Positions 2,562 through 24,065 of a stretch of 64,000 bases of DNA are shown one piece after another. Source of the stretch: Escherichia coli (GTDB lineage: Bacteria > Pseudomonadota > Gammaproteobacteria > Enterobacterales > Enterobacteriaceae); assembly GCF_024223415.1 (NCBI RefSeq), contig NZ_CP100500.1; one strand, 5' to 3'. The translations under genes and the position numbers were made by a program. Positions within the stretch are counted from its first letter, which is position 1; every line of letters starts with the position of its first letter. The notes below the pieces were generated by a model. It did no database searches. It saw nothing but the letters and a program-made list of their open reading frames with translations, and was not told the DNA's origin.

Positions 2562-5500
2562 TACCGATATGCTCCACTTAACCGACCACCATCACGGGCC
2601 TGCTGTTGCATAAAGTCCGCTGCCGCTTTTTTCCCAAGGTCATAAACCACCTTCAGGGCAGCCGGACCTATCTGCCCGTTCGTGCCATCGTTATTGATCT
2701 CGATGTTGTACTGCGGGGCAAACATCGCCATACCTGAACCACCAATATCCGCCACAACCCCCAGCTTACCGTCAGCACCACGACGCAGTGGCAGAATGGC
2801 TTCAGGTCCAGCTTCCCCCATCACACCCGCGCCTTTTGCAAAAGCAAAAAACGTCGGACGGTTAACCACCGTGCCACTGTAACGACTCAAATCAGCAGAC
2901 TGATAAATCCCCCCATTGGCATTCAGGGAAAGGCTGCTGAGATCAAATCCCAGTACACTGCCAATCCCTTTTATCGATTTCATCATGGTTGCCTGCGCCA
3001 GGATTTTCGCCATATCTGACAGCACCGAAGAGGTGAAGGATTTGAAGTTGAGTTTGCCGGTAGTGACAAAAGTTGCCAGGCCATTTCCCATGTTGCTGAA
3101 GGCTGATGAGAACACCTGTTCTGCTGTTCCTGCCGTATTGTCTGCATCCACGGTAAAATCCTGAAATGCACGCAGGACTCCGTTTTTCCAGTTACCCTGC
3201 ACAACTTCAAGCTGTTGCCAGTAACGGCGATTCTCATTCAGTTGTCGGTTCAGGCTCTCCGTCAGCGCCTGCTCGGCCTTTCTGTAGTCATCCGTGTTAT
3301 ATGTCCCTTTCTGCTCACTATCCCGCCTCAACTGCTCCAGCTGTTGCTGGTATTTCTGGCGAAGACTCAGTTGTACCTGATATCGCTGCCGCTGCTGATC
3401 ACCCATACCCACCGTGGCGATATCCAGGTCATGTTGCTGACGCTGAGCGCGCTCTTCTTCAGCCAGTTGACTGGTCAGCTGAATTGTTTTTTTCTTCAGA
3501 TCGTTGAGTGCCGTTTGTTTCTGAAGCTCCTGCTGTTTTACATCCAGCAGCGTCAGTGCCTGAATCAGTTCATCTTTACGGGCCAGCACACTCTTTTCAT
3601 CTGCCGTCAGTTTTTTCCCGTCCAGGTCGCTGATGCGCTGCTGCAGAGCCAGAAGCTGTTTATGCGCTTCTGTCATCCTGTCAGTGGCAATGCCTGCTGA
3701 CTGTCTGGCAGCAGCAATCTGCCCTTCCACCTGTGCCTGTTGCTGGCTGTACTGCAGCAATAACCGGGTGGCCTCATCATTACGGGTTTCGCGTGTTTTT
3801 TTCTTACCGGATGCCAGGGCTTTCTCGTAACGTTCATTTTCACGTTGTATCGCCGCATCCCTGACAGCCTGATCGGCGTACTGCATGGCATTAATACGCG
3901 CAATTTCACGCTGATGTCGTGCTGCTTCCGTTTCATTCATCCGGTTCAGTGCAGCATTTTCAGCATTACGGCGTTTCTGTTGCTCCTGATAATTCCGCTC
4001 TGCCTGCTCTTTTGCATCCTGCAAATCCTTCTGGCGTTTTTTCTCCTGAAGCTCGTTAAGACGCTGCTGATCGTATTCAACCTGAGAAGATGATGCCGTC
4101 CAGGGGAGTCTTTTCGCCCGCGATACTTTCTCCTGCAAAGTGGCAATCTGCGCATCCAGCGAATCTTCACGACCAATATTCATGGCCGCATCCCAGAACT
4201 GCTTCCACCAGTCAGACAAGGTTTGCAGCGTACTACCCAGCGCATTGAGGTTATTATCAATATCCGCAGTACGCCGACCGGTTTCCTCTGCCAGTGCAGA
4301 CATGGCTATCCGTGCCGCATCACTGGAGCGCCCCTGCTCTCCAAGGACGCGTATCTGCTCAAGCTGAGTGGCAGTAAGAAAATGCAGCTCATTGTCCAGA
4401 GCCTTCGCGGCATTTACAGGATCATCCTTCAGCCGCTTAAACTGATTTATGGTATCGCTGATCGACTGGCCAACCGATCGCTCCATCTGTGCGGCAGCTC
4501 TCGCCACCATACCGATATCGTTTCCACGAAATGCACCACTCCCCACCACCTGAGCCAGCGCACCGGCTGCAGCATGTTGCGTGATACCATTCCCGGAAAT
4601 AGCACGACTGAGCGTCCACAGCTGCCCGGCAGTGACTCCGGCATAATGCCCCGTCAGCGACAGCTGGCGGTTAAATTCTTCCCCCTCCTTCTGACCGTCA
4701 TACCAGGCTTTACCCAGACCATAGACGGCCGCGGTAATACCGCCAATAACCCCGCCCAGCATCATGCCTTTCGGTGACATCAGTGTGTCTATCCATCCGG
4801 CACGGTTAGCCAGCGTTATCCCGGATCCCCTCAGCGCCCCTAAATTGCCGCGGGCCAGTTCACCTATCAGAACGCCTATCTCCTGGCGGGCCGCTGCACT
4901 TTTCAGACCCAGCGAATGCGTGGCTTTTCCTGCCCGCTCCATTTTGCGGATATACACTTCTGCAGCACTGCTTACCCCCAGCTGGGCAGCCCTGGCACGA
5001 AGCAACTCAGAAGAAGAAAGATTCTGGCGGGTTGCCTGCTCTTTAAGCTGACGGATAAACGCCACTTTCTGTCGGGTAGCCTCTGCCTCAGCCTGCGTAA
5101 GAACACGGGTTTTCGCCGTAACCTCAGAAATCAGCGCCAGATAATCCTGCTGACCAATCCCGCCACTGTTTCTGGCCTGTCGGATCTGCTGCTGAATACG
5201 CTGTAACTCCTGCAACCCCGCACTGGCCTGTTTCACACTGTCAATCTGACGATAAAACGCGGCAGCCGCTTTATCCTGAGCCTCCGCCAGAGCCATGGCC
5301 TGCGCCTGTTCCTCGCGCATTTTCTGGCTCAGCGCCTCCATGCGCTGGCGGGTTTTCTCCACCTCGCGGGCCATGCGTTCATGAGCCTGTGCGTTCTTCT
5401 CCACCGTCTGCGCATGGACGGATGCGGCTGTTGCAGCCGAAGAAGCCGCCTGCGTTGTCTGCCGGGCGGCCTGAGTCTGACGCTCCATAAAACGCTGCAT

Positions 5501-5656
5501 ACGGGCAGAAGACCGTTCTGCATCGCTGGCTGCACCATTCAGAAGGTTTTTGATACGGGGAATTTCATTTTTAAATTCTGCCGCATCAATCCCCAAATCA
5601 ATGACCAGGTTGGCTATCTGGTCCATAACGCACACCTCCGGAAATACCTTCCCCAA
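2561..5656 (-). CDS. H: Tail tape measure protein H
   Basis: 1031 aa, long coiled-coil/Q- and A-rich central region, Gly-rich hydrophobic C-terminal segment; position between G/T and M. Confidence 0.85.
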   Translation of the reverse strand: MGKVFPEVCVMDQIANLVIDLGIDAAEFKNEIPRIKNLLNGAASDAERSSARMQRFMERQTQAARQTTQAASSAATAASVHAQTVEKNAQAHERMAREVEKTRQRMEALSQKMREEQAQAMALAEAQDKAAAAFYRQIDSVKQASAGLQELQRIQQQIRQARNSGGIGQQDYLALISEVTAKTRVLTQAEAEATRQKVAFIRQLKEQATRQNLSSSELLRARAAQLGVSSAAEVYIRKMERAGKATHSLGLKSAAARQEIGVLIGELARGNLGALRGSGITLANRAGWIDTLMSPKGMMLGGVIGGITAAVYGLGKAWYDGQKEGEEFNRQLSLTGHYAGVTAGQLWTLSRAISGNGITQHAAAGALAQVVGSGAFRGNDIGMVARAAAQMERSVGQSISDTINQFKRLKDDPVNAAKALDNELHFLTATQLEQIRVLGEQGRSSDAARIAMSALAEETGRRTADIDNNLNALGSTLQTLSDWWKQFWDAAMNIGREDSLDAQIATLQEKVSRAKRLPWTASSSQVEYDQQRLNELQEKKRQKDLQDAKEQAERNYQEQQKRRNAENAALNRMNETEAARHQREIARINAMQYADQAVRDAAIQRENERYEKALASGKKKTRETRNDEATRLLLQYSQQQAQVEGQIAAARQSAGIATDRMTEAHKQLLALQQRISDLDGKKLTADEKSVLARKDELIQALTLLDVKQQELQKQTALNDLKKKTIQLTSQLAEEERAQRQQHDLDIATVGMGDQQRQRYQVQLSLRQKYQQQLEQLRRDSEQKGTYNTDDYRKAEQALTESLNRQLNENRRYWQQLEVVQGNWKNGVLRAFQDFTVDADNTAGTAEQVFSSAFSNMGNGLATFVTTGKLNFKSFTSSVLSDMAKILAQATMMKSIKGIGSVLGFDLSSLSLNANGGIYQSADLSRYSGTVVNRPTFFAFAKGAGVMGEAGPEAILPLRRGADGKLGVVADIGGSGMAMFAPQYNIEINNDGTNGQIGPAALKVVYDLGKKAAADFMQQQARDGGRLSGAYR

Positions 5657-5927
5657 GATGCATCAGTTCTTCGTCCGTTCGCTCCGGTATCCCGTTCTCT
5701 TCCGGTAAAAGGCTGAAATCAGCCACCGCAGCATCACTGCTGCCGGACACCATTCTCACGATCAATGCCTTCAGCGAGGCAAACTGCGCATCCATCCACA
5801 CATCACTGAAGCTCTGCATCCGGAAATAATCGCCCCACTCACCAAGCTCAGTGGCCGACATTTCCGACAGCATCCGCCGCCAGTCTGCCCGCCTGAACTC
5901 CCGGGCAAGCCGCATGACAAACTGCAT
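5598..5927 (-). CDS. T: Tail assembly chaperone T-frame segment (probable G-T fusion by -1 frameshift)
   Basis: 109 aa ORF in -1 frame relative to G, overlapping start of H; lambda G/GT arrangement. Confidence 0.6.
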   Translation of the reverse strand: MQFVMRLAREFRRADWRRMLSEMSATELGEWGDYFRMQSFSDVWMDAQFASLKALIVRMVSGSSDAAVADFSLLPEENGIPERTDEELMHLGEGISGGVRYGPDSQPGH

Positions 5928-5935
5928 TTCCCGCG

Positions 5936-6364
5936 TCAGGACTTTTCCGGCGTCAGCACCTCATGCTCCAAATCCCCGACATTCTCAATGGCTCCCATAC
6001 CGCTCAGCGACAGAACCATCTCCGCCCCCGCTCCCAGGGCATCATACGACCATGTTGTAATAACGGATGCGCAAAGCGTCTCAACATCCTGAGACTGTTC
6101 CGCATTCCACAGTGAGCGGGAAACCAGCCAGGCATTGATATCCATCCCCATCCGTAGAAAAGCAATCTGTCGTTCAGCCTCCGGCAGTTCTCCCTCTTCG
6201 GCATCAAACTTTGCCGTTCGCTGCTGAACAAACGCCAGATATTCAATTCTCTGCAGCCCGGACAGCTCACTGAGCACCACGGACTGCTTTTCATAATTAA
6301 ACGTGCCCTGTTTCAGAAACATCATGTTCTCCACCTGCAAAAAAGCCCCGGATAATCGGGGCAA
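5936..6364 (-). CDS. G: Tail assembly chaperone G
   Basis: 142 aa acidic protein directly downstream of V; ends ...HEVLTPEKS just before T frame. Confidence 0.7.
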   Translation of the reverse strand: MPRLSGAFLQVENMMFLKQGTFNYEKQSVVLSELSGLQRIEYLAFVQQRTAKFDAEEGELPEAERQIAFLRMGMDINAWLVSRSLWNAEQSQDVETLCASVITTWSYDALGAGAEMVLSLSGMGAIENVGDLEHEVLTPEKS

Positions 6365-14594: not shown

Positions 14595-15088
14595 TACTCC
14601 TCCTGCTGTAATTCCTCCTCATCATCCGCACCTGCTTCAGTCACCCGCAGGGCTATCTGATCGCGCAGATCATCAATAATGGACTGAACACGGCTCACAG
14701 CGGCAGGCTGCAGACCGCAGTCACGTTCAAGAATATCCGGTAATGTCTCCAGCACCTGCACGACCGCTTTTGCCCAGATGGCAAACTCCCGTCTGACATC
14801 ACTGGCCGGAATGAGTTGTGCCGTTTCCTGTTCGAACTTAAGACGCTCACGTTCAGACTGATACCAGGCTTTGCGCTCATGCGCGTCCATTTCGCCTTCT
14901 GCAACCGGCGGTGGTAATGCCAGAAATGCCGACACAATATCAACCACCCGATAAAGCTTGAGGTTGCTTTCATGCCCCCCTGCAACGGGTAGATTTTGCA
15001 GCCTTGCCGCAGCAGTCTGGCGATGTACACCTGACAGTGCCGCCAGTTGACTGATATTAAGCGTCAGATTTTTTAACTCTCGATCCAT
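14594..15088 (-). CDS. Terminase small subunit (Nu1-like)
   Basis: 164 aa; N-terminal HTH LNISQLAALSGVHRQTAAARL; acidic C-terminus; precedes terminase large subunit. Confidence 0.75.
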   Translation of the reverse strand: MDRELKNLTLNISQLAALSGVHRQTAAARLQNLPVAGGHESNLKLYRVVDIVSAFLALPPPVAEGEMDAHERKAWYQSERERLKFEQETAQLIPASDVRREFAIWAKAVVQVLETLPDILERDCGLQPAAVSRVQSIIDDLRDQIALRVTEAGADDEEELQQEE

Positions 15089-15409
15089 ACCCGCTCCAGA
15101 ATGTTTTAAACATGCATCTTGCGAACAACTTTAGGCAAACGGTGTTAGTGATGAACAAAAAACAATCAAAATCGACACTACAAAAATAAAACCACTGTAA
15201 TATCAATCTATTACAGTAGTGGTGATGACGAATGAAATTTCAAAAACTAGCCTTTTTCCGCGATGCTCCCGCCCCGTGCCAGCCTCCCCCATTAGGAGGA
15301 CCCACATTTCTTATCAGGTATTCAAAACGCCCACCTCAATGAGGTCGGATCAGATTGATGTGAGAGAACAAATCATGCAAACTATCTAAGCTCATGGTAA
15401 GAAGTAGCA

Positions 15410-15835
15410 GTGACAAGAGGATATTTCCTGATGGAGCAGGCAAATATTTTTCAAGAGATATTCGAACACGTTAGAAGTAATTTATACTTCCCATGGTTTT
15501 ACTCCGAATTAAAACGCCATAATATTGCGCATTATATTTATTATCTGGCTACTGATAATATAAGACTAATTACTCATGATGATAATGTTTTATTAGTTCG
15601 AGGCAGTAGAGGACTTGTGAAAGTTAGCACATCAAAAAAACCAGAGTTAATTAAAGAAGCAGCCAGGAATCTTATATCAGGTAAATCTACATTTCACCAA
15701 TATCGTCTCACTTTAGCAAAAGCAGGTGTTTATCGCTGGATTACAGATATAGATAAAAACATACGGTTTTACTATTCGTTTGATCACGATCTTTTGTACA
15801 TGGAAGATGTTGAAAATAACAGACCATTAATATAG
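15410..15835 (+). CDS. Hypothetical protein (AT-rich orphan cargo gene)
   Basis: 141 aa ORF on opposite strand to the late operon in an AT-rich island between Rz and terminase; Tyr/Asn/Ile-rich; no recognisable family. Confidence 0.4.
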   Translation: MTRGYFLMEQANIFQEIFEHVRSNLYFPWFYSELKRHNIAHYIYYLATDNIRLITHDDNVLLVRGSRGLVKVSTSKKPELIKEAARNLISGKSTFHQYRLTLAKAGVYRWITDIDKNIRFYYSFDHDLLYMEDVENNRPLI

Positions 15836-16152
15836 GAATTAATTAAATCAGCAGTCCGGTTTCATACACCTCTGTACCGGACTAGCTGCATGAAGAGCAA
15901 ACCCGCGAAGCATAAAAGCGGTAAACCCAGGTGTGTATCGTTTTTTATTATTCCCACACACTCGTGCTCCCCGTCGGACTACACTCATGGTTAACGAAGG
16001 AATACAGCGACGATACGGCGCACAGAAATAAATCAGGCATCTATTGACCTCATAAAAACGATGCATTGCCTTGCTATGAGTAATGGTGTCAATTAAAGCT
16101 TTGGCTCTCTCTAGCCCCGGCGAATCTTCAGCGGATTATCCTTGGCCGGTTT

Positions 16153-16617
16153 TTATCTGAGGCATTGCTCTCGAATGTATAGCTGTGCCCCTTCAAGTTG
16201 TTTTTGCATTATTATCAGTCGCTCTCTGAGGGTGAAATAATCCCGTTCAGCGGTGTCTGCCAGTCGGGGGGCGGCTGCATTACCCACGCCGGAGGCGGCG
16301 GTGGCTTCACGCACGGTCTGACAGACTGCTCTGATGCGCAACCGACGACGACCAGCGGCAATATCATCACGAAGAGCATCATTTTCAGCTTTCGCATCAG
16401 CTAATTCCTTCAGGTATTTTGCATCGAGTGCAGTAATATCACGCTGGCGCTGCTGCATGTCAGTAATGGCTGCATTCGCCTGGCTGAGTTTTGTCTTCGC
16501 ATCATCTCTCTGCTCTTTGTAGATGATGGCATTATCGCGGTAATGGGCTATTGCCAGCAACAGCGCACCACTGACCACCAGTAGAATAACAATCACCGCA
16601 TACAGAACCCGTTTCAT
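16153..16617 (-). CDS. Rz i-spanin
   Basis: From MKRVLYAVIVILLVVSG (N-terminal TM) with coiled-coil periplasmic region; Rz1 ORF embedded in +1 frame. Confidence 0.85.
   Translation of the reverse strand: MKRVLYAVIVILLVVSGALLLAIAHYRDNAIIYKEQRDDAKTKLSQANAAITDMQQRQRDITALDAKYLKELADAKAENDALRDDIAAGRRRLRIRAVCQTVREATAASGVGNAAAPRLADTAERDYFTLRERLIIMQKQLEGAQLYIREQCLR
16215..16397 (-). CDS. Rz1 o-spanin lipoprotein (embedded in Rz)
   Basis: 60 aa; lipobox LVVVGC and Pro-rich body PPPPPAWVMQPPPDWQTP; fully nested within Rz in another frame. Confidence 0.8.
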   Translation of the reverse strand: MRKLKMMLFVMILPLVVVGCASEQSVRPCVKPPPPPAWVMQPPPDWQTPLNGIISPSESD

Positions 16618-16914
16618 TTCACCACCAGCGTATCTGAGCAATGAAATAACCGGAGGCCATAATCGCAAACACCAGCCAGAAAAGAATGAATTTCCAGGTG
16701 GATAATTTTTCAGCCATAGTTCGAATCTCCCGAATCAGTTTGCTAAAATCAAACACACTTTCTCCTTTGGCTTTTCCGGAGTCAGGAAACACAAAAAACC
16801 CGACTGTTCGCGCAATCGGGGGTCTGCTCTTATTCACTACTTCAATTCATTTATGACTAATATCGTGTTATCCACCCGCGTTGGCCAACGTCATTTTTCA
16901 GAGAAATATTCTGC

Positions 16915-17448
16915 TTATCTGTCGATCCCCCAGCACACTAACGCGCTCTCCTGATCACGACGAATAACCTGACCGTAACAGTTATTTGAACGAATGCGGC
17001 AATCACGCCCCCTGTCCTTAATCCACCAGCGAATCGCCTCGCATGCACCTTTACGATCACCAGCATTCAGCCGTTTATAAAACGTCGACGGAAAACACTT
17101 ACCGGGGCCAATGTTATAGGGACAAAATGACGCGATACCCGCTTTTTGTGGTTCGGTCAGTGGTACTTTAATATTGCGCTCCACCCATGCCAGAGCCTTA
17201 TCACGCTCAATAGCGTTAACCTGGTCGCATTTTTCCTTCGACAGTTTCATATTGGGAAAAACGGGTTTTCCATCCACCACTGTGGCACCCCGACAGATGG
17301 TCCATATGCCGGAACCATCACGGTATGCCATTGTGTGGTTACCTTCTTTTTCGTCCAGAAACTGGTCAAGTATCTGAGGAGCAGATGCACCAGCACCAAT
17401 CAGCGCCAGAACGGCAGCCGACAGGCCGTATTTGACTTTTACGTTCAT
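16915..17448 (-). CDS. SAR endolysin (phage lysozyme)
   Basis: 177 aa; N-terminal signal-anchor-like hydrophobic stretch YGLSAAVLALIGAGASA followed by lysozyme-like region (…GSGIWTICRG…). Confidence 0.8.
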   Translation of the reverse strand: MNVKVKYGLSAAVLALIGAGASAPQILDQFLDEKEGNHTMAYRDGSGIWTICRGATVVDGKPVFPNMKLSKEKCDQVNAIERDKALAWVERNIKVPLTEPQKAGIASFCPYNIGPGKCFPSTFYKRLNAGDRKGACEAIRWWIKDRGRDCRIRSNNCYGQVIRRDQESALVCWGIDR

Positions 17449-17553
17449 GGATATTTATCAGGATTTATCGATTTCTGAACCCAGGATATGTTTATCTGTC
17501 CCAACCTGTTGAATCAGGCGGAGAACAGGTAAATACAATCAAGAGGATTATTT

Positions 17554-17826
17554 ATGGACAATAACACCATTTCTCTTCAGGAGTTGCTCGACTGCATTTC
17601 CAGGCTTCGGGATGATGTTAATGCCCTTACTGTCGCATTTTCATATCTGGCATTGTCAATTCCCAGGGAACAAATGCAACCAACACTGGCATCGCTCCAG
17701 CTTGAATCACACAGCCCAAAATGGTCCCAGGAACAACAAAATTCCTTCAAGTGGCTGGTGGCATTACTGGAAGATAAATATGCTGTTAAAATTAAAATTC
17801 CGGCGGAGTCTTCAGAGAACCAGTAA
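17554..17826 (+). CDS. Hypothetical protein (inserted in lysis cassette)
   Basis: 90 aa ORF with AAGAGG RBS about 6 nt upstream and promoter-like TTGAAT/TAAATA; convergent with the 114-aa ORF. Confidence 0.4.
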   Translation: MDNNTISLQELLDCISRLRDDVNALTVAFSYLALSIPREQMQPTLASLQLESHSPKWSQEQQNSFKWLVALLEDKYAVKIKIPAESSENQ

Positions 17827-18136
17827 TTTTTCCCGGTAGCTTTACTTTGTAAGTTATCCACACATTCTGCGCCTCTAAAATTATGGGGTGCTTTTCTGGC
17901 GACAGCTCATTCCCTTCACATAACCCGGCAGCAACATCCAGGAAGACCTGTCTGATTCTCCTTCTGGCTGCTGCCTCATAAAACTCCAGTGCAGCACCTT
18001 CAACACGATCCATAGTGATATCAAGGTCAAAAATCTCACCGTCAAAGCGTTCTTTGTCTTGTAAGGCTAAAGTTACCGCAACTTTATTCTCAAAATTACG
18101 GACTCCTTTCACAACCAGTTCGTAGACTTGAGTCAT
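17792..18136 (-). CDS. Hypothetical protein between holin and endolysin
   Basis: 114 aa ORF starting 5 nt after the holin stop on the same strand; no TM segment, no recognisable family. Confidence 0.45.
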   Translation of the reverse strand: MTQVYELVVKGVRNFENKVAVTLALQDKERFDGEIFDLDITMDRVEGAALEFYEAAARRRIRQVFLDVAAGLCEGNELSPEKHPIILEAQNVWITYKVKLPGKITGSLKTPPEF

Positions 18137-18140
18137 TGGA

Positions 18141-18356
18141 TTACTCTCCTCTCTCAGCCTTACGCCTGTCTTCTTTAATCTTGAAATAAAGGTTAGTCAG
18201 ATACGTCAGCATGCCAAATACCAGACTACCCAATACACCTATTGCCGCCCACTGTGAGGGCGTGACTTTATCGAGCAACTGTAAAAACCAGTAGCCAGCA
18301 CTGCCTGCAGAGGTGCCGTAGGCGATGCCCGTTGTTAACTTATCCATGGATTTCAT
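18141..18356 (-). CDS. Holin/pinholin (S21-like, class II) with dual-start motif
   Basis: 71 aa from [28 protein letters not shown]...; two TM segments; the M-K-S-M dual start suggests holin/antiholin forms. Confidence 0.8.
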
Positions 18357-18445
18357 AGCCTCACCTCCGCAGATAACGGATGGTGTACACGGTTTGGTTC
18401 GAAGAAGGAAAAAAGTTACATTAACGTAAGGCCCGAACATCTATT

Positions 18446-18478
18446 CAAAAAGAAAAACGCCAGCAATTATTCTGGCGT
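18446..18478 (-). terminator. Rho-independent terminator downstream of AraC gene, upstream of holin
   Basis: Minus-strand hairpin ACGCCAG-loop-CTGGCGT followed by a T-run. Confidence 0.5.
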
Positions 18479-18539
18479 AGCTGAAAGCATCATACAATTA
18501 TCAAATACGAAAATTACAAAATCATTAAAACGCATCACG

Positions 18540-19280
18540 TTACATCATGTCTTTTTCTAAAAAAAATCTTGATGAATATTGATGGGGAGGAACACCAAAA
18601 TATCTTCTGAAAACACTTACAAAATATGACGTGTTTTCATAACCGCATATCTCAGCAACTTTTCCAACAGAATATAAATTGTAGCTTAATAACCTTTCCG
18701 CCATCACCATTCGCTCTTCAAGAATTAACTTACTAAATGATAAGCCTTCGTGCTTTAATTTTCTTTTTAACAGGCTTTCACTCAGATACAGTCTTGAAGA
18801 TATATCACAAAGTCTCCATGCTGCAGATATATCCGTGTGAATAATAGCCTTAACTTTACTTCCTAAACTATTAAGACATCCAAATAAAAAACTTTGCACT
18901 GTTTTCTCTGAAGATAAGATAGCAAGACATGCAAGTGATATTTGATTTCTAACAAAATCCACAGTTCTGCCATCAAAATTCAAGCATGCAATCAAATTCT
19001 TTAACAATGAAAAATCTTCACATTCCACCATCAAGTATGCCGGATAAAACCTTCTTACAGAAAAAGGTGAGAGTGTGTTGTTTTTAAAGAAATCATTAAC
19101 TGTTTTCTCTTCAACATCTACGATCATTACATGATCTATATTTGATGAAAAAAAATCTTTTAAATTGTAATCAATGAGAACAGCACTTCCTTTTTTAAAC
19201 AAAATATCTTCTTTACCAATTCGGACATCAAACGAGTTCAACACCAAAATGATAGAACATATGTATGGCATATTATCCAC
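18540..19280 (-). CDS. AraC-family transcriptional regulator
   Basis: 246 aa; C-terminal AraC HTH (...VGKVAEICGYENTSYFVSVFRRYFGVPPHQY); AT-rich. Confidence 0.8.
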   Translation of the reverse strand: MDNMPYICSIILVLNSFDVRIGKEDILFKKGSAVLIDYNLKDFFSSNIDHVMIVDVEEKTVNDFFKNNTLSPFSVRRFYPAYLMVECEDFSLLKNLIACLNFDGRTVDFVRNQISLACLAILSSEKTVQSFLFGCLNSLGSKVKAIIHTDISAAWRLCDISSRLYLSESLLKRKLKHEGLSFSKLILEERMVMAERLLSYNLYSVGKVAEICGYENTSYFVSVFRRYFGVPPHQYSSRFFLEKDMM

Positions 19281-19622
19281 CTGATATCATTGGGGTTACA
19301 CCAGGTAAGTATAGGTGGAAAATCAATATTCGCCAGTTCAACAATAAGGAAAATCTCATTGCATCACAAGTATAAAATTATGTATTTAACTCACAAAGAC
19401 AAATTATTAAACCAATCTGTTATATTATATATAGCTGCGTGGAATCATAATATTATATATTTTGACTGGCATGTTTACCAACTTTAAGTTGCATCTCAAT
19501 GGTTTCTTCAGCGTAAACAGAGTTTTTATACAAACTGACACTCTGGGTATCATAGTGTAGTTTTTACGATTGTAAATATCCTGCATGCAGGAACTCATCC
19601 TTTTGGATGATATCGCATACAA

Positions 19623-20582
19623 TTAATTTACCATCAGTCTTAGAGCCAGTTCGTCCGGATAGGGATCGAAGTAATTCTGTGTAAGCAAGTAGTCATTAGG
19701 ATACTCACCCAGATAATGCTTCAGCAGAGTCAACGGCGCAAGAAGAGGTAATGTGCCAGAACGATAGTTAAGTATAACCTCGCTCAACTCTTTACGCTGG
19801 CGTGTACTTAAGTAGTTACTAAAATACCCCTGTATATGCATCAGCACATTCGTGTGATTTTTACGTGATGCAGGTTTTCTGAGAATCGCCATCAGCTTAT
19901 CACGATACACCTCAAAGTATGATTCAAGGTCCGCCCACTCGTGTATTGCAGCCACAAATGGTCCCATATCTTTATAGCCTGCCTGACTATGCGCCAACAA
20001 CTGAAGCTTATAACGACTATGAAAAGCTAATAACTCTCTTCTTGATAATTTCTCCTTGTAAAGGTGATTGAGCTCATGCAAAGCAAAAACTCTTTCAACA
20101 AAATTCTCACGAAGCACTGGATCATGTAATCGCCCATCCTCTTCAACCGGTAGCCAGGAAAACTTTTCCATCAAAGTGCTCGTAAATAGTCCCACTCCAT
20201 CTTTACGACCTCGATTACCATTTTCATCATAGACACGCACGCGCTCCATGCCACAGCTGGGAGATTTAGCACAAACCACAAACCCCGATACATCCTTTAA
20301 TTTGTCCATATAAGAACGACTAAACTCTGTCATTCTCTCTGTCACATCCTCATTCTGGTCGTGGCTGAAACACATCCGTATATTTCCTTGCGTCGAGCGC
20401 ACAAGACGTAGAGCAGGACGCGGAACTGGCAGCCCTATAGCCATTTCCGGACATACTGGTCTGAATGTTACCCATTCCACTAATTTGTCCATTAAAAAGT
20501 CAGCTCTTTTGTGACCACCATCAAAACGAACAGCAGAACCGGCCAAACAACCGCTGATTCCAATCACAGGTTTTTTTATCAT
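19623..20582 (-). CDS. DUF523 (TudS/YbbK-like) - DUF1722 (YbgA-like) fusion protein
   Basis: 319 aa; N-terminal GISGCLAG Cys-containing motif typical of DUF523, C-terminal YbgA-like region; assignment from motif recall. Confidence 0.6.
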   Translation of the reverse strand: MIKKPVIGISGCLAGSAVRFDGGHKRADFLMDKLVEWVTFRPVCPEMAIGLPVPRPALRLVRSTQGNIRMCFSHDQNEDVTERMTEFSRSYMDKLKDVSGFVVCAKSPSCGMERVRVYDENGNRGRKDGVGLFTSTLMEKFSWLPVEEDGRLHDPVLRENFVERVFALHELNHLYKEKLSRRELLAFHSRYKLQLLAHSQAGYKDMGPFVAAIHEWADLESYFEVYRDKLMAILRKPASRKNHTNVLMHIQGYFSNYLSTRQRKELSEVILNYRSGTLPLLAPLTLLKHYLGEYPNDYLLTQNYFDPYPDELALRLMVN

Positions 20583-20774
20583 ATCCTCCCCCTTGACTAA
20601 TTCATTAACACATAAACTGTGTAGTGCACGGAATAAATTGCCTTTCTGGCGTCATCACTGACAATTTTTCTGTTATGGACTATTCCTAATATAGTATGAA
20701 AGTTCTTTAAGTGATCGGTCGTAATCATCTATCTTTCATACTTACTCTCAACTATCAAAAGTACAGGATTTATT

Positions 20775-21299
20775 ATGAAGTTATGGCCTGTGTTGACTGG
20801 CATTGCACTCTCTTTCACTCTTATAGCATGTAAGGCCCCGACACCACCTAAAGGTGTGCAGCCGATTACAAATTTTGACGCCAACCGCTACCTCGGAAAA
20901 TGGTATGAAATAGCTCGCCTCGAGAACCGGTTCGAACGTGGTCTGGAACAGGTCAGCGCTACTTATGGAAAACGGAACGACGGAGGGATTCGTGTACTTA
21001 ACCGTGGATACGATCCAACGAAAAATAAATGGAGCGAGAGCGAAGGTAAAGCATACTTTACTGGAGATACTAAAACTGCAGCGTTGAAGGTTTCGTTTTT
21101 TGGCCCCTTCTATGGTGGCTATAATGTAATCAAACTGGATGATGAGTATAAGTATGCTCTTGTCAGTGGTCCGAACAGAGAATACCTATGGATTCTGGCA
21201 AGGACCCCAACTATTCCAGATAAAGTAAAAGCAGACTATGTGCGAACCGCTCAAAAGTTGGGATTCAATGTCAATGAATTATTATGGGTTAAACAATAA
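20775..21299 (+). CDS. blc: Outer-membrane lipocalin Blc homologue (lipoprotein)
   Basis: 174 aa; lipobox LIAC; GKWYEIARLENRFERGLEQVSATY and KVSFFGPFYGGYNVI closely resemble E. coli Blc as recalled. Confidence 0.85.
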   Translation: MKLWPVLTGIALSFTLIACKAPTPPKGVQPITNFDANRYLGKWYEIARLENRFERGLEQVSATYGKRNDGGIRVLNRGYDPTKNKWSESEGKAYFTGDTKTAALKVSFFGPFYGGYNVIKLDDEYKYALVSGPNREYLWILARTPTIPDKVKADYVRTAQKLGFNVNELLWVKQ

Positions 21300-21327
21300 A
21301 ATCCCTACCCGAAATGATACTTATTAG

Positions 21328-21355
21328 AAAAAAACCAGCCTTTGGGGAGGCTGGC
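21328..21355 (-). terminator. Intrinsic terminator downstream of Q (tR'-like)
   Basis: Minus-strand hairpin CCAGCC-loop-GGCTGG followed by TTTTTTT, about 100 nt downstream of Q stop. Confidence 0.55.
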
Positions 21356-21454
21356 TAAATCAGAAAACAAGCTGTTATATGATAATAACTACGTTGCGAT
21401 TCCAACATTTAAAATGTTAGACTAATGACAATCAGACAGCAACTTTTCCTTTAA
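21356..21454 (-). promoter_or_regulatory. Probable late promoter pR'/qut region
   Basis: Position between Q stop and the tR'-like terminator by analogy with lambda; promoter elements not identified. Confidence 0.3.
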
Positions 21455-21847
21455 TTATTTCGGACAATCAGCATCCATCTCCAATCGGAGATCCAACACC
21501 ATCAGCATGCCCTCCACTACGCCCTCAGCTTTCTGGAGCATCCTGCCAACCCAACAATCAGATCGCCCATGCTTACGTGCAAGCGCCATAAAAGTCATGC
21601 CGCCGACATAATAGTCCACCAATAAATCATGCAAATCGCTGTTGTTTTTTTTCAGGCGAGCCATACATCCACAAATGATCATCGCGTCATCGTCACAACA
21701 TTGCGGGCGAGATTTTACTTTTGAAGGAATTAATCCCTTAAAACCGGCGGCAATGGACGACCAGGTCACATCTTCATGATTATTAGCCGCCCACGCTCCC
21801 CAACGCTCAAGAACCATCTGAATATCACGCATCAACTTTCTCCACAA
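21455..21847 (-). CDS. Q: Late antiterminator Q (phage 21/82-type)
   Basis: 130 aa with Cys-rich zinc-binding region ([16 protein letters not shown]...CWVGRML); followed by terminator; start may be MRDIQ at 21832. Confidence 0.8.
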
Positions 21848-21849
21848 AA

Positions 21850-22845
21850 TCAGGCCAGCACACCAATCGCCAGCGCACGATCGATAAAACGAAATATCAG
21901 CTCCAGCTGGGAGCCATACTTCTCTTCGAATGCCACATTATCCGCATGCAGCTCGTCGTGATGCTTTCTGCACAAAGGCAACACAAAGAGGTCATGCGCT
22001 TTTGTCCCCATTCCACCCTGACCGTGGCCTATCAGGTGGTGGGGATCATCAGCAGGTTTTCCACAACATGCGCACGGCTGCGTCTTAACCCATCGCGTGT
22101 ACTTTTCATTAACCCAGCGGCGACGTTTTGGGCGTAACATAAAAGAGTCCGGCGACTCCGGATCCACTTTCAGCGCCAACACCTTTTTCGCTTTATCCTG
22201 GATGATGCTGGTGGCAGGAACCGAAGGCACCAGGTCACTTTCCCGGGTGACAGACGGCACAACAGGCTTCGGTAATCTCAGTGCCTTACGGGCTGCACTT
22301 TCCGGTAAGGCATCCGCCAGATCATTACGAATCAGCCACCAGCACAGTTCCGGCATTGTCACAACGTGACTGTCATCAAAACCGAGATCCCGACGCACAA
22401 CAGACAACACCCAGCGGGCACAGTTATCCGTTGCCATTGATTCCAGCCGTTCCGTGAACTGATCGCGCAGTTGGTTATCGCAGTGCCAGCACAGACGGAT
22501 TGCGCCCGGCGCGTGTCGCATTGTGGTCATGTTCTCGCTGTGCCAGTCGGAATGAGGCCACTGGCAGCCTTTTTCACGAAGTAACCAGCTTTCAAGACAT
22601 TCCACGCCACCAGCACGACGGATCACTGCCTCATTGCGGAACACGGCCCGAACGGCAGGATCATCCGCCAGCGGTTGTGATGCAGCCGGAACGGCACCAC
22701 TGGCAAAAGATGAATAACGTTCCGGCTCAGGCTCCAGCAGGACACGCCCCTGCATAAACAGGGGCATCAGCTCTGAACCTGGCCTGAACAATACGATCCC
22801 CATACGCGGGGCAATTTCAGGGGTCAGTAGTGCTCTCACGGTCAC
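21850..22845 (-). CDS. DUF968-family protein (HNH-like, nin region)
   Basis: 331 aa; C-terminal CxxC...HH...H motif (QPCACCGK...[10 protein letters not shown]...CRKHHDELH). Confidence 0.65.
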
Positions 22846-22846
22846 C

Positions 22847-23656
22847 TCAATGAACGGTATCGAGCAGCTTTAACAGCTCAGGGAATCGGGATTCGAAGAA
22901 ATGCGGCTGCGTCTCGCGCGGATTTGCGGGACTGGTGATGTTCTTGCCGAACATGCAGCCTTTCGCTGTCAGCGACCAGAATTTTTTGATGTTGTTAATC
23001 GCGGTACGGCTGTATCGTTCGCGTTGTTCAACGATCCCCAGCTTCGCCATCTGGTGATATGCCTGATTAGCCGTCAGGCGGATACCATACTGCTTCAGCA
23101 GTGCACTCAGCGACAGCGTCGGGCGGCTTGAGCCATCAGGCGCGTCAGCAGGTGCATCAATGGCATAGCGCGGTGCCAGATTCGGTAAGCCAACAGCCTC
23201 CTGGAGTTTCTGACAGGCCCCAAGCACAGATGAGTTAGACAGATTTAACTCCCGGCGCATAAAGTCCAGCAGAATCACGCCAGCCTGCATCTTGTCAGCA
23301 GCCTGTCCGGATAACTTTTCCGGCGCGCTGGTTACCATATCGAAAGTACGGATCACCTTCAGATGGAATGACGGGCTGATCCACATTGCATAGGCATACA
23401 CCAGTTCCTTACAGACATACGTTCCCCGTTCATTTCCCCCATGAATCACGCTCACCGGGTCAACACCCAAATTCTGGGTGTTGGTTAATTCATGAACAAG
23501 CTCAACAGTTTGTTGGCTGGAAAGAAACTTTCCTGGCTCCTTGGTTCTGGCATTTGCACCAGATGCTACTGCTGCGCGATGCAGATCGTTCAGGCTGTAA
23601 CGCCCATAAGCATCACGACGAACTTCAATACCATCAATGACCATCAGATTATTCAT
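22847..23656 (-). CDS. KilA-N domain protein (putative antirepressor)
   Basis: 269 aa; N-terminal KilA-N-like region (IDGIEVRRDAYGRYSLNDLHRAA...). Confidence 0.65.
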   Translation of the reverse strand: MNNLMVIDGIEVRRDAYGRYSLNDLHRAAVASGANARTKEPGKFLSSQQTVELVHELTNTQNLGVDPVSVIHGGNERGTYVCKELVYAYAMWISPSFHLKVIRTFDMVTSAPEKLSGQAADKMQAGVILLDFMRRELNLSNSSVLGACQKLQEAVGLPNLAPRYAIDAPADAPDGSSRPTLSLSALLKQYGIRLTANQAYHQMAKLGIVEQRERYSRTAINNIKKFWSLTAKGCMFGKNITSPANPRETQPHFFESRFPELLKLLDTVH

Positions 23657-23675
23657 ACTTCGTTTCTCCTCTTAA

Positions 23676-24065
23676 TCAGGCAGCTGCACCCGCCGTTTTC
23701 TCGTACTTACTGATAGTGATCTCGACCTTCCCTTCCGGGATAACCGGTCCCCACTCCACCAGCATTCTTTTCACCTGACTGTCGTCTTCCCACACCCCCG
23801 CGTGGGTCAGGGCGTCAAACAGCGCCTTGTTATAGTTGTCCAGATCGCGGATCCTGTTATCCGGAGGAAACAACACGATCTCCACTGAAGCAGGTGCCGA
23901 CGTTGGTTTCGGCAGACGACGTAACTGCTCAACTATTGCTGCGCACGCCGCGCTCTGGAATTTTCGCCCCGCCGCGCTTATCAGGCTCTTACCTGCAAAC
24001 GCCCCTTTGTTAGGGTGTCGCCAGTAAGTGTTCACGCTGGGCGGGAAAGGCAGGATAAGCTTCAT
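23676..24065 (-). CDS. rusA: Holliday junction resolvase RusA
   Basis: 129 aa; LPFPPSVNTYWRH...DLDNYNKALFDALTHAGVWEDDSQV matches RusA motifs. Confidence 0.85.
   Translation of the reverse strand: MKLILPFPPSVNTYWRHPNKGAFAGKSLISAAGRKFQSAACAAIVEQLRRLPKPTSAPASVEIVLFPPDNRIRDLDNYNKALFDALTHAGVWEDDSQVKRMLVEWGPVIPEGKVEITISKYEKTAGAAA

Follow-up and report, generated by a model that had tools for sequence, protein, structure and literature searches.

The DNA analysed here, a stretch of 64,000 nucleotides from Escherichia coli that we call the window, carries a lambdoid prophage in which three cargo genes lie between a QuuD-type late antiterminator gene Q, with its tR'-like hairpin, and an EssD-type holin gene. 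The upstream boundary of this slot is Q (QuuD/phage-82 type; 21455..21832, minus strand), which RefSeq names 'antiterminator Q family protein' in a strain that has this cargo block at 100% identity; the protein matches Q of phage 1H12 at 122/125 residues, and its region shares 86% DNA identity with DLP12 quuD, reaching 21473. The downstream boundary is the holin gene (18141..18356, minus strand), annotated essD in RefSeq and lying in a region (18140-18376) that is 89% identical in DNA to DLP12 essD. From Q to holin the slot holds a gene for a Blc-like outer-membrane lipocalin lipoprotein (20775..21299, plus strand; 174 aa), rudS, a TudS(DUF523)-DUF1722 fusion (19623..20582, minus strand; 319 aa), and an AraC/XylS regulator of the GadW/YdeO/AppY/PatE group (18540..19271, minus strand; 243 aa). 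An ORF check of the window found all three reading frames present at these coordinates and uninterrupted, so that the pseudogenisation named by an earlier note on this DNA as a possible objection does not apply. That note had placed three genes without phage functions between the late antiterminator with tR' and the lysis genes, and this agrees with the boundaries just described, with the porin gene that relatives carry at the same place and with the non-structural character of the cargo.

The signals of the late operon can be followed in part. A candidate late promoter pR' (21414..21442, minus strand; TTGCTG-17-TAACAT), read from the sequence and assigned by its position and motif, is identical in phage IdasGreatGrand, and in 1H12 it has the same -35 together with the -10 TAATGT; we discarded a pR'/qut comparison with DLP12, as the region after Q is non-homologous to that prophage and the pR' call is therefore motif-based. 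Some 50-80 nt downstream of this candidate, the terminator scan placed a tR'-like intrinsic terminator with a 9-bp GC-rich stem and a U-run (21326..21356, minus strand), whose hairpin (21356-21333) has a dG of -14.9 kcal/mol and a z of -3.75, is equalled by 0/200 shuffles and is kept in both 1H12 and IdasGreatGrand. An Rfam scan of 15000-24000 at E<=0.1 gave no match, so that the slot holds neither a tRNA nor a known sRNA, and in the promoter and terminator scan such sites were no more numerous than in shuffled sequence. Two small ORFs, 19425-19622 and 20597-20728 (both minus strand), had no PHROG match, and we treat them as non-coding intergenic sequence; both are annotated as hypothetical in IdasGreatGrand. 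A search of the three cargo proteins with PADLOC was also without a match, and the block is thus not a known defence system.

The slot itself is a familiar one. In Stx phages the stx genes owe their Q-dependent expression to placement downstream of pR'-tR', and the porin gene nmpC/ompD fills this slot in DLP12 and in related phages whose Q and holin are of the types seen here, in place of the stress or regulatory set of the window. These porin carriers, and variants with an AraC gene alone, indicate that the present cargo is dispensable. The placement downstream of pR'-tR' and on the strand of the lysis genes is shared by rudS and the AraC gene, while blc has the opposite strand and, like nmpC in DLP12, is antisense to the late operon.

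The middle gene is RudS. Both halves of the fusion were recovered by Pfam (2-thiour_desulf PF04463, 1.6e-39, residues 7-149; DUF1722 PF08349, 2.2e-40, residues 192-309), so the DUF523 assignment survives an HMM search; the earlier view of an open thiouracil desulfurase candidate does not, since the protein is identical at 299/319 residues (93.7%) to RudS_vir of phage 1H12 (gp66, H3V29_gp66), one of the enzymes assayed by Jamontas 2024, who established RudS as a [4Fe-4S] tRNA 4-thiouridine desulfidase (PMC11417400). RudS_vir occupies the same cassette and position and has the same Cys12, Cys44 and Cys110 (numbering of RudS_vir and RudS_ST from Table 1 of PMC11417400), and none of the 20 substitutions between the two proteins falls at a catalytic position; in length our protein equals Salmonella RudS_ST/ORF319. 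Across 11 homologues the residues C12, C44, C110, E46, R55, S107 and S109 are invariant, and the DUF1722 half is likewise strongly constrained, with many invariant columns in the alignment. At the N-terminus the motifs can be aligned with TudS (6Z92), where C12 and C44 match its C10 and C43, while E46, S107, S109 and R55 stand at the offsets that the Cys numbering predicts for Glu51, Ser111, Ser113 and Arg60 of RudS_KT, which were placed through these offsets and not by direct alignment to the RudS_KT sequence. Taken together, these comparisons predict that the allele in the window is active like RudS_vir. Directly after the rudS stop codon stands a stable stem-loop (19581..19622, minus strand; dG -19.3 kcal/mol, z -4.39, 0/200 shuffles equal) that has no good U-run.

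Considering that its DUF523 domain has the TudS fold, the enzyme could instead have thiolated bases or nucleotides in free form as its main substrates, salvaging or detoxifying 4-thiouracil or s4UMP like stand-alone TudS, a role in nucleobase metabolism such as the earlier note had in mind. RudS_vir lends this some colour, with the shortest 4-thiouracil lag among the RudS enzymes assayed and a tRNA desulfidation below that of other RudS despite good protein levels (PMC11417400), and because of these two properties tRNA s4U is no more than its probable main substrate in nature. However, in the same study tRNA s4U in E. coli fell with every RudS variant and the activity disappeared in Cys mutants, the DUF1722 domain aided tRNA binding, and a uracil auxotroph on thiouracils was rescued by TudS and by no RudS, with growth on 2-thiouracil in none (PMC11417400). 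Together with the constraint on the DUF1722 half in our alignment, these observations make a chiefly free-base role improbable. The study also describes RudS as frequent in light-responsive operons, and E. coli as lacking RudS homologues (PMC11417400); in contrast to the latter, we find prophage rudS in 1,135/5,426 complete E. coli genomes.

The lipocalin belongs to the Blc family, as had been claimed (NCBIfam Blc subfamily NF007786, 316 bits against a cut-off of 267; Pfam Lipocalin_2 PF08212, 8.3e-44), and its lipobox LIAC is intact at residues 16-19, followed by Lys and thus without the Asp at +2, as outer-membrane sorting expects; an outer-membrane location is accordingly what this signal predicts. 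It shares fold and family, a lipobox and similar length with K-12 Blc (b4149, ampC-blc-gdx locus). What did not hold is that it is a second copy of the host gene, and we reject a duplicate or recent copy: the phage protein is 60% identical to K-12 Blc versus 74-82% to lipocalins linked to a chromosomal operon of Klebsiella, Scandinavium and Cedecea-like bacteria, for which the identity to K-12 Blc is in turn 61-64%. Judged by these identities, the phage Blc is a xenologue of chromosomal blc. No similarity was found between it and either the operon's unnamed 175-aa protein or its DUF3833 lipoprotein. A lipocalin is no rarity among such phages, blc having been counted as a moron in >50% of 19 infant-gut lambda-like phages (PMC6969025).

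The operon in question points to where blc and rudS came from. In the chromosomal locus blc is divergent from merR-snoaL-SDR-amine oxidase-DUF1365-CFA synthase-DUF2878-X-DUF3833-rudS, in which MerR is MlrA-like, the CFA gene is CFA-synthase-like and X is an unnamed gene. We find blc and rudS in the same relative orientation as in the phage in five loci from at least 3 named genera (Klebsiella variicola L021, Scandinavium L022, Cedecea-like L017 and L018, and L019, which is without merR), and L020 represents a short form of the locus. Of this arrangement the phage keeps the two end genes; the gene of the MerR regulator is missing, as are the eight genes between it and rudS. The phage and chromosomal proteins are 71-82% identical, so that the direct donor is not among the loci sampled; moreover the best relatives come from different taxa, Citrobacter for RudS (76-77%), and a metagenome contig (82%) and Cedecea (80%) for Blc. 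The divergent blc/rudS intergenic region (20583..20774) contains a motif at about 20680-20698, CTATTCCTAATATAGTATG, that is common to the blc-merR intergenic regions of the chromosomal loci (alignment A2), including a 15-nt match to L019 lying 94 nt upstream of the blc ATG in both. This similarity is weak, and because of this any promoter role of the spacer is put forward as putative. When the spacer was compared with the chromosomal loci by blastn and tblastx, this short pre-blc motif alone was returned, and no deletion junction was defined. An origin as a deletion derivative is thus suggested mainly by gene order and protein similarity, with the weak intergenic similarity beside them. Related CFA-synthase and MerR genes are induced by blue light in Vibrio cholerae (PMC5241685).

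The third gene has a different history. Its AT-rich composition (GC 0.316 vs 0.50 for the window) and AraC family, both noted earlier, are borne out by Pfam matches to HTH_18 (1.9e-14, residues 158-234) and HTH_AraC (5e-7), which make up the C-terminal double helix-turn-helix. The reading frame can also be opened from a GTG (18540-19280, minus strand); the ATG at 19271 is preferable, as it has the RBS AGGTGG and agrees with RefSeq. The YdeO model aligns over residues 4-239 with 127 bits against a cut-off of 348 and the other models fall far under theirs, so that the protein is an equivalog of none of the named regulators searched (YdeO, GadX and others). In BLASTP over ~235 aa its identity is 54% with Sakai ECs_0287, 34% with GadW, 32% with YdeO and 31% with AppY, and the likeness to all four is full-length, including the N-terminal domain. 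From the correspondence of the islands, ECs_0287 of Sakai Sp1 is probably PatE (EHEC OI-8/CP-933H), which like our gene is prophage-borne, AT-rich and encodes ~245 aa; a search of 50 kb of Sakai Sp6 found no AraC homologue. PatE and PsrB, prophage regulators, activate the gadE/hdeA acid-resistance genes (review PMC10877973), and PsrA and PsrB are further prophage-borne regulators beside PatE. Targets for the present protein can thus be extrapolated from a 54%-identical relative that is itself only probably PatE.

Upstream of this gene is a putative sigma-70-like promoter (19308..19336, minus strand; CTGGCG-17-TATACT), and in an alignment of the window with 1H12 and two further prophages, L009 and L010 (alignment A3), its -10 TATACT is invariant, its -35 fits nTGGnn and its spacer is 17/18. 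Downstream, before the holin, the terminator scan placed a hairpin with a U-run (18447..18478, minus strand; hairpin 18478-18457, dG -12.1, z -2.09), so that the claim of a terminator of its own stands as a match to the consensus. In AraC-only prophages, as L009 and L010 are, homologues 64% and 56% identical have no other cargo beside them between Q and either the holin or the end of the contig. Taken together this suggests that the AraC gene is a moron in its own right, with a conserved promoter-like site and a terminator-like hairpin, and the single three-gene island described before, although its three genes do share the slot, is better divided into two modules of different histories, blc with rudS and the AraC gene.

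The block is widespread. Among 5,426 complete E. coli genomes about 1,000-1,150 (1,033-1,152) have it, ~990 of which carry at least 80% of it in one piece, and 12 phage records match it at >=80% coverage, plaque-forming or isolated phages being among the carriers. As far as the stored DNA reaches, the order Q-blc-rudS-AraC-S is constant in 36 E. coli-type IMG/VR loci, one of which (L040) is without AraC and holin. All three genes have PHROG families. The possibility that they are neutral or decaying hitch-hikers without current function has some observations on its side: in several genomes the block is interrupted at varied positions by IS1, IS2 and IS3, BL21(DE3) has retained blc alone of the block, in a defective prophage, and there are truncated protein clusters. 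Against it stand not only the many contiguous copies but also three allele groups with every ORF intact in one order, and dN/dS values of 0.065 for Blc, 0.10 for RudS and 0.25 for AraC at an allele dS of 0.19-0.37, with Q and S at 0.08-0.09. Purifying selection is acting on all three genes, and we regard the hitch-hiker account as very improbable. The block is real and functional, and also ordinary, a common and catalogued cargo of E. coli lambda-like prophages with low novelty; what is new here is modest, namely the locus of origin and a separate capture of RudS by a Citrobacter prophage.

We favour, with a probability of about 0.7, the reading that this is a composite moron block of two modules in the Q-to-holin slot of a lambdoid prophage. 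The first module, blc and rudS, would be the two outer genes of the chromosomal Enterobacterales locus, its regulator and inner genes having been lost. The [4Fe-4S] cluster of RudS (Cys12, Cys44, Cys110) is expected to convert 4-thiouridine of host tRNA to uridine and so to leave less of the near-UV-sensitive s4U, and Blc would be exported to the outer membrane as a lipoprotein, where lipid binding is expected. The second module would be the self-contained PatE-like gene with its own promoter and terminator, acting most likely on host promoters, for which the GAD/hde acid-resistance regulon is the prime candidate. Since blc is antisense to late transcription it needs a promoter of its own, and in the lysogen rudS and the AraC gene could each rely on a promoter of their own, the evidence for blc and rudS promoters consisting of weak motifs; as both rudS and the AraC gene are on the late strand downstream of pR'-tR', Q-modified read-through would also be expected after induction. 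The benefit to the host is likewise presumptive.

The value of the block is practical and not conceptual, and concepts of phage cargo are unchanged by it. About 1 in 5 complete E. coli genomes possesses a natural prophage-borne eraser of tRNA 4-thiouridine, and the carrier strains allow RudS to be studied at native levels, in lysogeny and on induction, beyond heterologous overexpression. The PatE-like regulator becomes a widespread candidate modulator of acid-resistance or virulence regulons in non-EHEC E. coli, and the link of the phage lipocalin to the merR...rudS locus is a testable hint that this Blc subgroup is part of a light or oxidative-stress response.

The read-through expected for rudS and the AraC gene raises the question of whether the block serves the lytic cycle and not the lysogen, the two genes being expressed chiefly in that way, with s4U erasure sustaining translation after UV-type induction or otherwise remodelling host tRNA. 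Their co-orientation with the late operon directly downstream of pR'-tR', the same placement as stx in Stx phages, would suit this, as would the finding of a different RudS, captured independently, in the early-right nin region of six prophage contigs. However, blc cannot be expressed by read-through, the AraC gene has its own conserved putative promoter and terminator, and the at least 1,000 carriers were found as chromosomal copies, with BL21(DE3) at least keeping blc in a defective prophage. We therefore hold a primarily lytic role to be possible, if rather unlikely; the lytic and lysogen uses are compatible with each other and not exclusive. A more speculative and, to our minds, unlikely proposal goes further, and sees in blc and rudS a stripped-down photo-oxidative-stress module from another enterobacterium in which lipocalin and s4U eraser cooperate. 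With rudS placed in the late operon, phage-driven s4U erasure would set in upon induction and might sustain translation or blunt the s4U/ppGpp near-UV alarm during the phage cycle, and RudS would be a viral 'epitranscriptome' gene selected for itself. The separate capture at another site is consistent with this proposal too. In these six closely similar contigs the nin-region rudS runs in the same direction as the replication genes, rusA and Q, and its protein is identical to a Citrobacter protein.

The late genes of the window lie on the minus strand, in an order on which our ORF listing agrees with RefSeq for E. coli GDSC2BY4G (our annotation reference, whose cargo block at 18441-21454 is 100% identical to the window). 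The slot starts at Q (21455-21832(-)), followed by a blc-like lipocalin gene on the opposite strand (20775-21299(+)), rudS (19623-20582(-), 'YbgA family' in RefSeq), an AraC-family gene (18540-19271(-), HTH in RefSeq) and the holin gene essD (18141-18356(-)), downstream of which come, in order, a YdfR/DUF1327 gene, lysozyme and Rz. None of the three cargo ORFs is interrupted, and the placing of a three-gene cargo between Q/tR' and the holin in the earlier note is borne out, as are its family assignments, including DUF523, which all hold on HMM search. On the late strand, 3' of the Q stop codon, we found a promoter-like TTGCTG-17-TAACAT matching consensus (candidate pR') and, ~50-80 nt downstream of it, a strong tR'-like hairpin with a U-run (21356-21333, dG -14.9, z -3.75), while the terminator scan gave a second hairpin with a U-run on the same strand, 3' of the AraC gene (18478-18457). 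The tR' and the AraC gene's own terminator, both expected from the earlier reading, are therefore present as consensus-level calls, the number of sites in the scan not being above that in shuffled sequence. A very stable stem-loop directly 3' of the rudS stop codon (19581-19622(-), dG -19.3, z -4.4) has no proper U-run and may act in RNA stabilisation or processing, or as a weak terminator. GC content is 0.32 in the AraC gene and 0.44 in rudS and blc, against 0.50 for the window, and searches for RNA-family and defence-system matches returned none.

The product of the middle gene combines 2-thiour_desulf/DUF523 (1.6e-39) with DUF1722 (2.2e-40) by HMM search and is identical at 299 of 319 positions to RudS_vir (1H12 gp66), the product of the gene at the matching place in this cassette in the infant-gut phage 1H12, which by homology identifies it as RudS, a predicted tRNA 4-thiouridine desulfidase. 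TudS-DUF1722 fusions were characterised under this name and activity in 2024, with RudS_vir among the enzymes tested: every RudS expressed in E. coli reduced tRNA s4U, cysteine mutants lost activity, tRNA binding was assigned to DUF1722, and no RudS let a uracil auxotroph grow on thiouracils as stand-alone TudS does (PMC11417400). The label 'thiouracil desulfurase' thus remains good for the DUF523 domain but has been outdated for the fusion since that work. RudS_vir itself was comparatively weak in tRNA activity and gave the shortest lag with 4-thiouracil (PMC11417400), for which reason a salvage role keeps a small probability. An alignment with ten homologues (71-93% identity) shows Cys12, Cys44, Cys110, Glu46, Arg55, Ser107 and Ser109 conserved without exception, and the motifs of the N-terminal part can be aligned with TudS 6Z92. 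The remark in the same study that E. coli is without RudS homologues (PMC11417400) holds for K-12, but does not apply to roughly one in five sequenced strains.

The lipocalin matches Lipocalin_2 (8.3e-44) and the NCBIfam Blc subfamily (316 bits, cut-off 267), and its lipobox (LIAC) is intact, as had been claimed. However, it shares only 60% identity with K-12 Blc as against 74-82% with its nearest relatives, lipocalins of other Enterobacterales, and we no longer regard it as a second copy of chromosomal blc. We inspected the contigs encoding the closest lipocalins (Klebsiella variicola, L021; Scandinavium, L022; two Cedecea-like assemblies, L017 and L018; one read-set assembly, L019) and found the same blc-linked locus in all five. 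In four of them the lipocalin gene is divergent from a ten-gene operon headed by a MerR (MlrA-like) regulator, in the order merR, SnoaL, SDR, amine oxidase, DUF1365, CFA-synthase-like, DUF2878, an unnamed gene of 175 aa, DUF3833 lipoprotein and, last, rudS; in the read-set contig the operon begins at SnoaL, without merR. A metagenome contig (L020) has a short form, blc facing merR, a transthyretin-like gene and rudS. Among themselves the operon-linked lipocalins share 76-86% identity; with the phage protein they share 74-82%, and with K-12 Blc 61-64%. In the phage, rudS(-) beside blc(+) corresponds to the two ends of this locus with relative orientation kept; moreover, a multiple alignment places the motif CTATTCCTAATATAGTATG, upstream of blc (~20680-20698), against the blc-merR spacers of the chromosomal loci, and the window and the read-set contig share a 15-nt match 94 nt from the blc ATG in both. 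Gene order and protein similarity above all, together with the upstream motif, suggest that blc and rudS are a deletion derivative of the merR…rudS locus from which the MerR regulator was lost. We infer this origin rather than observe it, because similarity of the phage blc-rudS spacer to the chromosomal loci is weak, the best RudS relatives are in Citrobacter (76-77%) and the best Blc relatives in different taxa, and no close donor occurs among the sampled genomes.

As further observations on the chromosomal loci, a divergent Blc-subgroup lipocalin stands at the upstream operon end in L017-L019, L021 and L022; the operon also occurs at six Citrobacter loci (L011-L016), whose 5-kb flanks end inside it; and the candidate blc promoter, TTGAAT-20-TACACT, has a 20-bp spacer, a length typical of MerR-regulated promoters. 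RudS has been placed in light-responsive operons with MerR/LitR regulators (PMC11417400), and blue light induces a CFA-synthase gene in Vibrio cholerae, where a MerR-dependent response has also been shown (PMC5241685), which by analogy suggests a context of photo-oxidative stress for the parent locus.

The AraC gene is, judging from its neighbourhoods, a separate module and an independent neighbour of blc and rudS, and the idea of one three-gene island does not stand. Its product (HTH_18 and HTH_AraC by HMM search) belongs to a narrow family, more distant members of which (64% and 56% identity) lie directly after Q genes of other types without blc or rudS; in one of these prophages (L010) the holin follows directly, and in the other (L009) the contig edge comes just past the gene. 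All four versions have a promoter-like nTGGnn-17/18-TATACT ~40 nt upstream of the start (19336-19308 in the window), which with the downstream hairpin would make a classic moron layout. Full-length alignments gave 54% identity to Sakai Sp1 ECs_0287, 34% to GadW and 31-32% to AppY and YdeO. We rejected YdeO itself, as the score against its equivalog model (127 bits) is far below the cut-off of 348. ECs_0287 is presumably PatE, being the only regulator-like gene in the Sakai counterpart of EDL933 OI-8. Since PatE and PsrB reportedly activate gadE and hdeA, with PatE also repressing LEE genes (PMC10877973), the GAD regulon is our best first guess at its targets, held with modest confidence.

Of 5,426 complete E. 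coli genomes, 1,152 carry the 3-kb block, 990 of them as a single piece of at least 80% coverage (per gene: AraC 1,033, rudS 1,135, blc 1,134). Isolated phages have it too: IdasGreatGrand (97.7% DNA identity) and, at ~90%, 1H12, 2E9, 4B5 and the ev series, which are lambda-like phages from the infant gut. E. coli-type RudS occurs in 36 IMG/VR loci, in three allele groups. As far as their stored DNA extends, the genes run Q, blc (opposite strand), rudS, AraC, S, with one exception (L040) having unrelated DNA in place of AraC and holin. There, homology to the window stops at the AraC gene start (equivalent to 19252), and a ~50-bp insertion lies at the equivalent of 19457/19458. PHROG gives each of the three proteins its own family, all labelled 'unknown function'. 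In the K-12 cryptic prophage DLP12, as in phages sharing these types of Q and holin, a porin gene (nmpC/ompD) fills the slot, which confirms it as a cargo-exchange site.

Six closely similar IMG/VR prophage contigs (L063-L068) carry a different RudS (rudS at 5001-5960 of each), 73% identical to that of the window, 100% to a protein named in Citrobacter sp. and 99.4-99.7% to proteins from C. youngae and C. portucalensis. The gene occupies the nin region, where a DnaC-like loader and activator genes precede it and dinI-rusA-HNH-Q flank its other side, and neither blc nor AraC accompanies it. This represents an independent phage capture, and separate capture at another site favours selection on RudS itself. 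Comparing the window and 1H12 alleles (dS 0.19-0.37) gave dN/dS values of 0.065 in Blc, 0.10 in RudS and 0.25 in AraC, against 0.08 in Q and 0.09 in the holin. A minority of copies are damaged by IS elements, at different sites in the three examined (L025-L027: IS2 at the rudS 5' end, IS1 in the rudS-AraC spacer, an IS3-family element inside the AraC gene). BL21(DE3) retains a remnant in a defective Qin-like prophage (NC_012971.2, 1588189-1589052), with blc intact (98% DNA identity), rudS cut by IS3, and the AraC and lysis genes gone. Such damage is ordinary prophage decay and no evidence against function. Among the 30 best-scoring genome matches, seven (H29, H30, H42-H46) have IS1, IS2, IS3 or IS911 inside the cassette.

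As blc is antisense to late transcription, it would be expressed solely from its own promoter. The AraC gene may be active in the lysogen via its conserved putative promoter, and rudS possibly from a remnant merR-operon promoter. Both are also encoded on the late strand, shortly 3' of the candidate pR'-tR', and this position suggests that Q-modified RNA polymerase would pass both hairpins and transcribe rudS, the AraC gene and the lysis genes beyond, as occurs for stx in Stx phages. The most probable effects would be a lowering of host tRNA s4U, shown for the RudS family by overexpression (PMC11417400), and hence a weaker near-UV-triggered growth delay; one more outer-membrane lipocalin; and an extra AT-rich GadW/PatE-type regulator, probably H-NS-silenced, acting on host promoters.

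The cassette is already known from deposited phage genomes: blc was listed in 2020 among the commonest morons of infant-gut lambda-like phages (PMC6969025), and the 2024 study cloned phage RudS and assayed it (PMC11417400), its supplement making no mention of a lipocalin. Prophage AraC regulators of this type are likewise a known class. Within the literature searched, three modest comparative observations appear to be previously unstated: the blc-rudS pair as the two ends of the chromosomal merR…rudS locus, the AraC gene as an independent neighbour, and the separate RudS capture by a Citrobacter-type prophage.

Elsewhere among the late genes, an AT-rich DUF1398/YbcV-like gene (15410-15835(+), GC ~0.33), which lies in opposite orientation between the lysis genes and those for terminase, looks like another moron, the PHROG label 'head protein' for its family being doubtful. 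The YdfR/DUF1327 gene (17792-18136(-)), between holin and lysozyme, is overlapped by a conserved 90-aa ORF (17554-17826(+)), which RefSeq annotates and PHROG places in a family of its own (phrog_2411); L010 likewise has this opposite-strand pair 3' of its holin. Finally, GDSC2BY4G carries an IS2 in its Rz/lysis region (16377-18083 of that locus versus 16153-16668 of the window), and the window, which has no such IS2, thus derives from another copy of the prophage, one free of the IS.
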